From: a bacterium
Lineage (GTDB): Bacteria > Zhuqueibacterota > Zhuqueibacteria > Oceanimicrobiales > Oceanimicrobiaceae
Length of the DNA stretch: 33,060 nucleotides
Reading direction: 5' to 3'
Assembly (NCBI GenBank): GCA_046757025.1
Contig: JBHHXN010000048.1
Location: 1-33,060, forward strand
Below are positions 1 to 4,077 of this stretch, one piece after another. The notes under the pieces are model-generated. The model saw only the letters and a program-made list of their open reading frames with translations, was not told where the DNA came from and did not search any database. How positions within the stretch are numbered: position 1 is the first letter of the stretch; each line of letters opens with the position of its first letter. The position numbers and the translations under genes are program-made.

Positions 1-732
<732 letters not shown>

Positions 733-2569: not shown

Positions 2570-3028
2570 TCAATGGCGCTGCTTTTGTTTGAGTACTTTC
2601 CTTAATTCGCGGTCCGATTCCCTTTTTGCAATATCCTTACGCTTATCGTAAATCTTTTTACCTTTTGCCAACGCCAATTCTACCTTGACGTGGCCATATT
2701 TGAAATAAAGTTTTAATGGAACCAGTGTCAGTCCTTTCTCCTGTACTTTCCCGATCAACTTTTTAATTTCATTTTTATGTAACAACAGTTTTCTTGGCCG
2801 CAATGGATCGTGGTTATTGATGTTTCCGTGCGAATAGGGACTGATGTGCGCATTGAACAGGAATATCTCACCATTTTTTATGTTTGCATAGCTGTCCTTT
2901 AAATTCGCACGTCCGGCTCGCAGTGATTTAACTTCCGTGCCGGTAAGCACGATGCCCGTTTCTAACGTAGATAATATCTGGTATTCATGCCGTGCTTTCC
3001 GATTGGTTGCGATGATTTTTTCACTCAT
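2570..3028 (-). CDS. smpB: SsrA-binding protein
   Basis: [44 protein letters not shown] motifs. Confidence 0.98.
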
Positions 3029-3139: not shown

Positions 3140-3226
3140 GCCGAAGTGGTGAAACTGGCAGACGCGCACGGTTCAGGGCCGTGTGTCCGCAAGGACGTGT
3201 GGGTTCGAATCCCACCTTCGGCACCA
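3140..3226 (+). tRNA. tRNA-Leu(CAG)
   Basis: Acceptor stem GCCGAAG/CTTCGGC, anticodon arm CACGG-TTCAGGG-CCGTG, long variable arm GTCC-GCAA-GGAC, GGTTCGAATCC T-arm, encoded ACCA end. Confidence 0.97.
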
Positions 3227-3260: not shown

Positions 3261-3305
3261 AAAAGCGGCAATAAAAAGAATTTCAACTTGTTTATTGCCG
3301 CTTTT
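3261..3305. terminator. bidirectional intrinsic terminator
   Basis: Inverted repeat AAAAGCGGCAATAAAA / TTTTATTGCCGCTTTT between the convergent tRNA and zinc-ribbon gene. Confidence 0.8.
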
Positions 3306-3332: not shown

Positions 3333-3542
3333 TCAGTTCGCTCACGTAAACCCTTTACCGGGCAAACAACCACCCAGGCTCTGACCGGAATCGCTGCCGG
3401 CAGAAGCAAAGGTTGACAAAATTTTTTCTGGGAACGGAGCACCGCATTCAGGACAATTCAAATCCTTCCCGTCGGCGCCGATTTTCTGCAACACGTCGAA
3501 TTGAAATTCACAATTCTTACATCGATATTCATAAATTGGCAT
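3333..3542 (-). CDS. FmdB-family zinc-ribbon protein, candidate selenoprotein (UGA at 3344-3342 read as Sec; otherwise ends at 3342)
   Basis: MPIYEYRCKNC...CPECG zinc ribbon; ATG at 3542 with GGAG SD. C-terminus CLPGKGFT-UGA-Ala-Asn-UGA followed by a SECIS-like hairpin. The family call is solid; Sec readthrough is inference. Confidence 0.85.
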
Positions 3543-3557
3543 CCGGTTCTCCAAATG

Positions 3558-3719
3558 TTAATTTAACTTTGCTGTTTTATTCTCTTTTTTTTTGATTTCA
3601 CATTTCTCCGAAATGTCATTTGGATTTGTCATTCAAGTGTGGATCCCCAATCTGGGTAATACAAATTTTATCACAAAAAAATAACCAGCGAAAATCAAAA
3701 TAACCTCTAATGTCTCCAT
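3558..3719 (-). CDS. small single-TM membrane protein, candidate selenoprotein, 53 aa (METLEVILIFAGYFFVIKFVLPRLGIHT-U-MTNPNDISEKCEIKKKENKTAKLN)
   Basis: AAGGAG SD just upstream of ATG 3719; hydrophobic N-terminal helix; in-frame TGA at 3635-3633; the frame stays open to TAA 3560-3558, 15 nt before the next ATG. Not in the ORF track. Confidence 0.7.
3600..3616 (-). promoter_or_regulatory. candidate bacterial SECIS element for the small membrane protein
   Basis: ACATTTC-GGA-GAAATGT perfect 7-bp stem; the loop begins with G 23 nt after the UGA. Confidence 0.62.
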
Positions 3720-4077
3720 TACGACTCCTTTTTTTGACTTGTGATTAACAAGTTACGAATTCAAAAATCACACAAATGTCTTCGATTCATCAACATGATT
3801 TTTCCTGATAATGAATGAAAACAAACCCGACGATTACAATATGAAAAACTGCGCATTTATTCCTGGACAAATCATCTCATACACAAATAAACTATTTCAT
3901 TTTAAAATTAGATACAAAAGCCGTAGAAAAGATACCATTTTCTATTGTCTTTTTCAATCTCAATTTGAAATTGTGCTTGATTATTGATTACTGAAATCTT
4001 AATTTAATCATACCAAAAATCCTGACAATTGAAGACAAAAGGATTATTCAAAAAGCTAATGAAAAAAGGAGAAACCC

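Follow-up and report, generated by a model that had tools for sequence, protein, structure and literature searches.

The window analysed here is a 33,060-nucleotide stretch of a bacterial contig (JBHHXN010000048.1, assembly GCA_046757025.1). The features of the locus, with the basis on which each was placed, are as follows.

3558..3719, minus strand: 53-codon gene with UGA predicted to be read as selenocysteine (Sec), ending in a TAA stop at 3560-3558 (sequence and homologues)
3725..3730, minus strand: Shine-Dalgarno (SD) motif AAGGAG, 5 nt upstream of the ATG at 3719 (sequence)
3651..3716, minus strand: predicted single membrane helix, residues 2-23 (AlphaFold2 and flank charge)
3636..3659, minus strand: conserved LPRLGIHT segment directly before the putatively recoded codon (family consensus LPxLGVPT)
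3633..3635, minus strand: in-frame UGA, predicted Sec29 (codon counts in homologues)
3618..3620, minus strand: AAT (Asn34) at U+5, the position of the family Cys (comparison of 195 TGA-form sequences)
3600..3616, minus strand: putative bacterial SECIS-type hairpin ACATTTC-GGA-GAAATGT with a 7-bp stem (folding and family covariation)
3600..3602, minus strand: TGT (Cys40, U+11) (codons compared across 10 close relatives and 5 metagenome loci)
3342..3542, minus strand: FmdB-family zinc-ribbon gene (TIGR02605, E 1.9e-16, over the cut-off; PF09723)
3261..3305, either strand: perfect 15-bp inverted repeat with T-runs flanking both sides (z -4.4 and -3.9)

Read along the minus strand, the gene runs from its ATG at 3719 through 28 codons that end in LPRLGIHT, to a TGA at 3635-3633, an ATG at 3632, and a 24-codon tail. 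The elements described in the original prediction (the AAGGAG motif, LPRLGIHT-UGA-ATG, the 24-codon tail, and the hairpin at 3616-3600) are all present in the sequence, on the minus strand. The FmdB gene starts 15 nt past the stop of the 53-codon gene and carries a GGAG motif of its own. The two genes likely lie on one transcript, and the repeat at 3261-3305 is likely a bidirectional terminator that separates this operon from the gene for tRNA-Leu(CAG) at 3140-3226. A promoter scan gave signals at chance level only. The letters of the gene are identical in contigs of four out of four DNA runs, all from one hydrothermal-vent study, where two of the runs are possibly the source of this sequence.

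Farther out, the 5′ part of a 16S rRNA gene occupies window positions 1-732 on the minus strand, and the open reading frames at 1149-2387 and 2570-3028 are, judging from their translations, presumably tyrS and smpB. The order rlmB-like gene, 53-codon gene, FmdB gene, smpB is seen again in two homologous loci (L020 and L024). In the window, a divergent GYD-domain gene (PF08734; 4078-4371, plus strand), accompanied by an AT-rich gap of about 350 bp, sits between the 53-codon gene and the rlmB-like gene; no GYD-type reading frame is listed at the matching position in L020 or L024.

The central question at this locus is whether the in-frame UGA is recoded. A search for related loci with the single window sequence confirmed none, and phmmer with the window protein against 1.84 billion representatives returned two long, unconvincing matches. 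Searches with one sequence thus lacked power, and homologues were sought with profiles and in six frames. Following the test put forward with the original prediction, which was to search with the N-terminal 28 residues and inspect the next codon, we ran a profile of the 28 pre-UGA residues only, and thus unbiased as to what follows them, over 167 genomes of the window's phylum. It matches in 99 of these genomes. Of the 100 matches, 96 continue with TGA, one with TGC, and one with TAA, and the remaining two run into contig ends. A DNA pattern that leaves the recoding site free but requires the downstream Met-Ser and Cys finds at least 120 loci, with 109 TGA, 10 TGC or TGT, and one chance match among the matches listed. 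At the DNA level, Cys orthologues with TGC or TGT at the site are present in 11 genomic loci. In the order of a Geobacter-labelled genome, a profile that includes the window protein matches in 106 of 121 genomes; 112 of the 113 matches in this Geobacterales-type sample contain a TGA, and the recoding site is TGA in all 10 loci inspected. For the counts that follow, the chance match (L118, ATC), two contig-end matches, and duplicates were dropped to leave 195 distinct TGA forms, and in all homologue counts related sequences are non-independent. Throughout alignments A2 and A3, P22, G25, and T28 are invariant.

A different reading of the same codon is that UGA is a true stop, so that one peptide of 28 residues is made and a second of 24 residues is initiated on its own (the alternative offered with the original prediction), or that it encodes Trp. 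An ATG does follow the UGA in 179 of the 195 distinct TGA forms, and a protein search with 463 matches includes, among its best 120, 6 forms that end at the motif and 3 with Trp there. One homologue (L242, G136:C54) has TAA at the Sec position; it lacks a convincing hairpin, its genome has selA, and it is possibly a pseudogene. Yet the Met is also retained in all 11 continuous Cys forms, and the codon in its place is none of ATG, GTG, TTG, or CTG in 11 of the 195 TGA forms. Of 200 TGA-form homologues, 135 have an SD-like motif ahead of the first start, but just 26 of 205 sequences have one ahead of the post-UGA Met, and the reinitiation alternative thus found little to sustain it. The residue aligned at the site is Cys, in 111 of the same best 120 protein matches, where every name given is "hypothetical", and the Trp entries are likely gene-caller readings in code 4. 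The identity of the codon is also fixed at the UGA site and drifts at the true stop past the tail (TAA 75, TGA 65, TAG 51), the opposite of the varied stop codons that the original prediction had named as the sign of ordinary termination at the motif. Of 80 loci, 73 have a read-through frame that ends between -15 and +25 nt from the FmdB start; the two remaining frames do so in 21 and 7. Taken with the association of TGA with Sec machinery described next, these observations leave a true stop or a Trp codon extremely improbable.

A UGA that is read as Sec should occur in genomes equipped for it. In the window's genome, selA, selB, selD, and tRNA-Sec are all found over curated cut-offs. Two selD genes exceed the cut-off there (G000:C73 and G000:C344), of which one lies beside selB and contains an in-frame TGA, and the other is inside a 755-codon frame that is probably a fusion. 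Across all 10 Cys loci and 40 of the 109 TGA loci, the latter hand-picked to match taxa, selA occurs in 37 of 40 genomes with the TGA form versus 2 of 10 with the Cys form; for tRNA-Sec the counts are 35 of 40 versus 1 of 10. Within the phylum, selA is present in 91 of the 96 genomes with a TGA form; the 5 without a match, like the 3 of 40 outside the phylum, are drafts. The codon at the site thus tracks the Sec machinery.

The hairpin lies inside the coding tail, with its GGA loop starting 24 nt past the UGA, which corresponds to a 23 nt spacer. Bacterial SECIS geometry, as given in a 2026 review, comprises a loop of 3-9 nt, a stem of 4-16 bp, a G in loop positions 1-2, and a distance of 16-37 nt from the UGA (PMC13188914, Fig. 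2 legend), and the window hairpin (7 bp, GGA loop, 23 nt spacer) fits all of these limits. The same source sets an energy criterion of -7.5 kcal/mol or lower for its SECIS model and states that some SECIS elements fail the model (PMC13188914). At -5.2 kcal/mol the window hairpin fails this value, where the folding window or program may differ from that of the model, and it is among the weakest 20 of 193 in a family with a median of -9.1 kcal/mol. Taken alone, it stands at chance level (z from +0.09 to -1.10 over four folds); a comparable hairpin follows 2,252 of the 221,385 TGA triplets in the window's genome (1.0%), and Rfam gives no match at the hairpin. Its significance emerges only at the family level. 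A stem of at least 6 bp is present in 157 of the 195 distinct TGA forms versus 2 of the 11 Cys forms, compared with 22±4 in synonymous-recoding controls (maximum 31 and 37). In a gap-free alignment of 70 randomly chosen sequences, covariation reaches 0.585, compared with 0.232 when shuffled and at most 0.282 when slid, and two-sided changes are found in all 7 stem pairs. These comparisons indicate that the hairpin is selected as RNA across the family.

Comparison thus shows the UGA to be a conserved, Cys-interchangeable codon with a covarying hairpin, in a genome with Sec machinery, and three independent lines of evidence (machinery, hairpin, and the end of the read-through frame) agree with the prediction of a single-helix microprotein that contains Sec and has its SECIS in frame. 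Because established bacterial SECIS biology links such a combination of conserved UGA, covarying hairpin, and machinery to SelB, the family almost certainly inserts Sec at the UGA in a SelB-mediated manner, and the window copy very probably does so as well.

What sets the window copy apart is its Cys. The family motif is LPxLGVPT-U-M-S-x-x-C, with the Cys at U+5 in 191 of the 195 distinct TGA forms, and an Asn at this position is unique to the window copy among those 195. The Cys that had been pointed to at U+11 is present, but as the family partner of Sec that role falls to U+5. Close relatives have CGT (Arg) at U+11, where the window copy has TGT (Cys40), and by codon comparison the Cys40 codon is one half of a compensatory G-C to A-U exchange that leaves the stem intact. 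Elsewhere in the family, L212 and L214 show a one-residue shift of the partner (U-x5-C). Identity of the window copy to its relatives is normal over the membrane part with LPxLGxxT (0.42 vs 0.44) and lower over U+1 to U+5 (0.22 vs 0.39). In a poorly resolved tree built by a quick method from 33 columns, with 5 of 126 branches well supported, no branch in its group is longer than that of the window copy (0.94); the tree requires 5 changes between Sec and Cys, of which the well-supported branches force only 1.

These peculiarities raise the possibility that the family is a real selenoprotein while the window copy is decaying, or only weakly read through, and contributes little. The unique loss of the U+5 Cys, the weak hairpin, and the long branch would all fit such a course. 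They are offset by an intact SD motif, helix, and LPxLGxxT segment free of extra divergence, by the retention of the UGA and an open tail, and by a stem saved through a two-sided change. A relative, L027 (G004), has likewise dispensed with the Cys, having Tyr at U+5, and keeps both its UGA and an intact hairpin. We regard decay as improbable. Since the stem-preserving swap and the normal identity of the membrane part persist despite the lost Cys and weak hairpin, selection for Sec insertion seems to continue while the U+5 partner Cys has been lost or moved.

No family model in Pfam or NCBIfam scores above noise, with a best E of 0.015 for 17 members and nothing for 7 Cys forms at E 1e-4. The family is, however, already listed by name as a predicted selenoprotein, with six entries, in one paper's supplement (deep-Sep). 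Compared by eye, these six entries share the short hydrophobic N-terminus, the LPxxG[VI]xT-U-[ML]-x3-C motif, and the charged tail of the family, and two of them come from LCP-89 genomes. The window copy shares with them the N-terminal helix and LPRLGIHT-U (again by eye), but has Asn at U+5, where all six entries have Cys, and a Cys at U+11, and it was filed as a divergent homologue. In the portions of the deep-Sep paper at hand, the family appears as a label only, with no passage in the main text and no matching row in Table S1. A source for the "Geobacter lovleyi" label was absent from the available parts of PMC2398784, PMC9312934, PMC5029168, PMC13326102, PMC13745706, or the PMC11227280 supplement; in the accessible part of the 2026 review, no row of Table 1 names the family or its motif, and "lovleyi" is absent (PMC13188914). 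In the sources checked, the family has never been modelled or functionally described. The window protein is thus a divergent new member of an already flagged family of predicted selenoproteins.

Several known systems resemble the family in part. With the bacterial Sec/Cys redox pairs that depend on SelB and SECIS, as tabulated in the review, it shares the in-frame UGA, the hairpin within the gene, the loop G, the existence of Cys orthologues, and the co-occurrence with selA, selB, selC, and selD (PMC13188914, Table 1). It differs from them in being without a thioredoxin fold or other domain, and in a U-x4-C spacing in place of UxxC or CxxU (PMC13188914). A second likeness is to SELENOK and SELENOS, for which the Pfam models gave no match to the window protein (E up to 1) or to 17 members (E up to 0.5). 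In those two proteins Sec lies near the C-terminus, whereas in the present family it follows the helix by about 6 residues, and the analogy is one of build only. They are likewise small, with one hydrophobic membrane helix and Sec in a disordered segment, while the helix of SELENOK has been argued to be amphipathic (10.1101/2021.05.15.444318). DUF6132 (PF19628) proteins are also small and membrane-bound, have a C-x-[ST]-G-x-C motif of equal spacing, and are encoded near the family in 44 of 217 loci. Homology between the two was considered and set aside: hhalign gives 4.8% over 12 columns that cover the motif only, and DUF6132 has two helices versus the one predicted here.

AlphaFold2 models the window protein as one confident helix (residues 2-23, pLDDT about 90) with low confidence past it. 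Over 204 sequences, the mean charge is -0.9 before the helix and +1.7 in the 12 residues preceding Sec. By the positive-inside rule, the basic flank of a membrane helix lies on the cytoplasmic side. With an acidic flank before the helix and a basic one after it, the rule therefore points to an N-out/C-in helix, likely placing Sec some 6 residues past the membrane and facing the cytoplasm. The tail that follows is charged and variable in both sequence and length (median 27). A lipoprotein reading was dismissed on inspection, as the N-region is acidic and V-P-T-C does not form a lipobox. Foldseek against the PDB gave no match, and the ESM Atlas returned one unnamed cluster at 0.88, a lead only.

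How the protein might act is best approached through its gene neighbours. FmdB is a same-strand neighbour in 98 of 217 loci and DUF72 in 28 of 217. All 98 FmdB-linked loci carry TGA forms, and none of the 11 Cys forms is FmdB-linked. Such a linkage would suit a regulatory role, in which Sec-dependent read-through brings ribosomes to the FmdB start and renders the zinc-ribbon gene selenium-responsive, and the stop of the tail abuts the FmdB start in the same 73 of 80 loci noted above. Tight spacing is, however, ordinary in any operon, and FmdB has its own GGAG; the FmdB neighbour is missing from all 10 of the Geobacterales-type loci (L265-L274), and the Cys forms retain the whole peptide motif. 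A mainly regulatory role is therefore quite improbable in our view.

Redox and sulfur markers provide the second recurring theme. The marker list (Trx, TlpA, CcdA/DsbD, ArsR/SmtB, CoA-disulfide reductase with or without rhodanese, OsmC, DUF302, YgaP-like, DUF6132) was drawn up after the neighbours had been seen, and with a background of one genome, that of the window, markers lie within about 2 kb of 32 of 79 cross-phylum loci versus 3.4% of random windows. No marker is found at the other 47 of the 79 loci, nor in the window, where only FmdB is present. In L082, the order is thioredoxin, DUF6132, Cys form, CcdA-thioredoxin fusion, with a similar arrangement in L108, and this apparent operon is the best candidate for a membrane electron relay. 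Four planctomycete Cys forms (L047, L049, L103, L104) are followed by a YgaP-like membrane protein, with a cytochrome bd subunit I-like gene also present in three of them. In 7 of the 10 loci L265-L274, the gene converges with an operon on the opposite strand that is tlpA-ccdA-like, as named from translations and from profile matches in related loci. A CoA-disulfide reductase adjoins near-identical peptides in L068, L110, and L123 (labelled Flavobacterium psychrophilum, Cyanobacteriota, and Obscuribacteraceae, the first label probably wrong), and in L068 it carries rhodanese. In L169 and 7 related loci, a multiheme cytochrome lies downstream that matches the (seleno)protein ExtKL model at a score below the cut-off.

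Some of these neighbours could also be read in terms of metals, with Sec and Cys as ligands for soft metals or metalloids (As, Hg, Cu, Zn) at a membrane chelator or hand-over site that works with the zinc ribbon. ArsR/SmtB lies near 10 of the 79 loci and the FmdB zinc ribbon near 15 of the 79, in addition to its frequency overall, and the 2026 review proposes such roles for a number of small selenoproteins (PMC13188914). No metal exporter or arsenic or mercury gene recurs, though, while Trx, TlpA, CcdA, and CoA-disulfide reductase do, and the ArsR representative tested matched no specific metal-sensing subfamily. We consider metal binding unlikely as the main role.

A membrane-tethered Sec/Cys redox site is favoured because both the motif and the gene neighbours point to the handling of thiol and sulfur redox chemistry. 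Our overall reading, to which we give a probability of roughly 0.6, is that the window encodes a 53-residue inner-membrane selenoprotein whose Sec forms a thiol/sulfur redox site facing the cytoplasm. The UGA would be read as Sec through SelB and the in-gene hairpin, and the single N-out/C-in helix would set Sec just past the membrane, before the variable charged tail. Here, Sec may react with peroxide or with sulfane sulfur (per- or polysulfide) at the membrane and then form a Se-S bond to the Cys of U-x4-C, at U+5, a bond that thioredoxin or an enzyme of the CoA-disulfide-reductase type could re-reduce. This redox cycle, which we infer from motif and neighbours, has in our estimate a somewhat better than even chance of being correct in its reaction, bond, and thioredoxin-type recycling. 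In the window copy, which is without the U+5 Cys, Sec might act alone or Cys40 might serve as the substitute. A bolder extension, speculative and on balance doubtful, holds that the family, with its bare helix plus U-x4-C, is a bacterial counterpart of SELENOK and SELENOS and an overlooked, near-core membrane redox module of many phyla that exchanges electrons or sulfane sulfur with DUF6132, CcdA, and thioredoxin and couples selenium supply to FmdB, and that in the window copy the compensatory change in the SECIS created a replacement resolving Cys, at U+11 for the one lost at U+5.

Going by their labels, records with the family include Acidobacteriota, Planctomycetota, KSB1, Geobacteraceae, Syntrophobacteraceae, Thermodesulfatator, Armatimonadota, Myxococcota, Akkermansiaceae, Verrucomicrobiota, and Obscuribacterales, among others; a Cys-form pattern, which required the Cys, had no match in viral contigs or plasmids. 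Records labelled KSB1/Zhuqueibacterota contain peptides identical to those of some relatives, which makes this phylum the likely origin of the window. With 99 of 167 genomes of the phylum and 106 of 121 Geobacterales-type genomes, the family is far commoner than its single listing implies. Gene callers truncate or overlook it, and it has no Pfam or NCBIfam model, so selenoproteome counts drawn from those libraries or from the 2026 table miss it. The recoding mechanism itself is ordinary, and the function of the family is inferred. With just an anchor and a Sec/Cys pair, a selenoprotein could hardly be simpler. Its covarying hairpin offers a clean data set for SECIS models, and its natural Sec and Cys alleles allow a direct test of what Sec adds over Cys.
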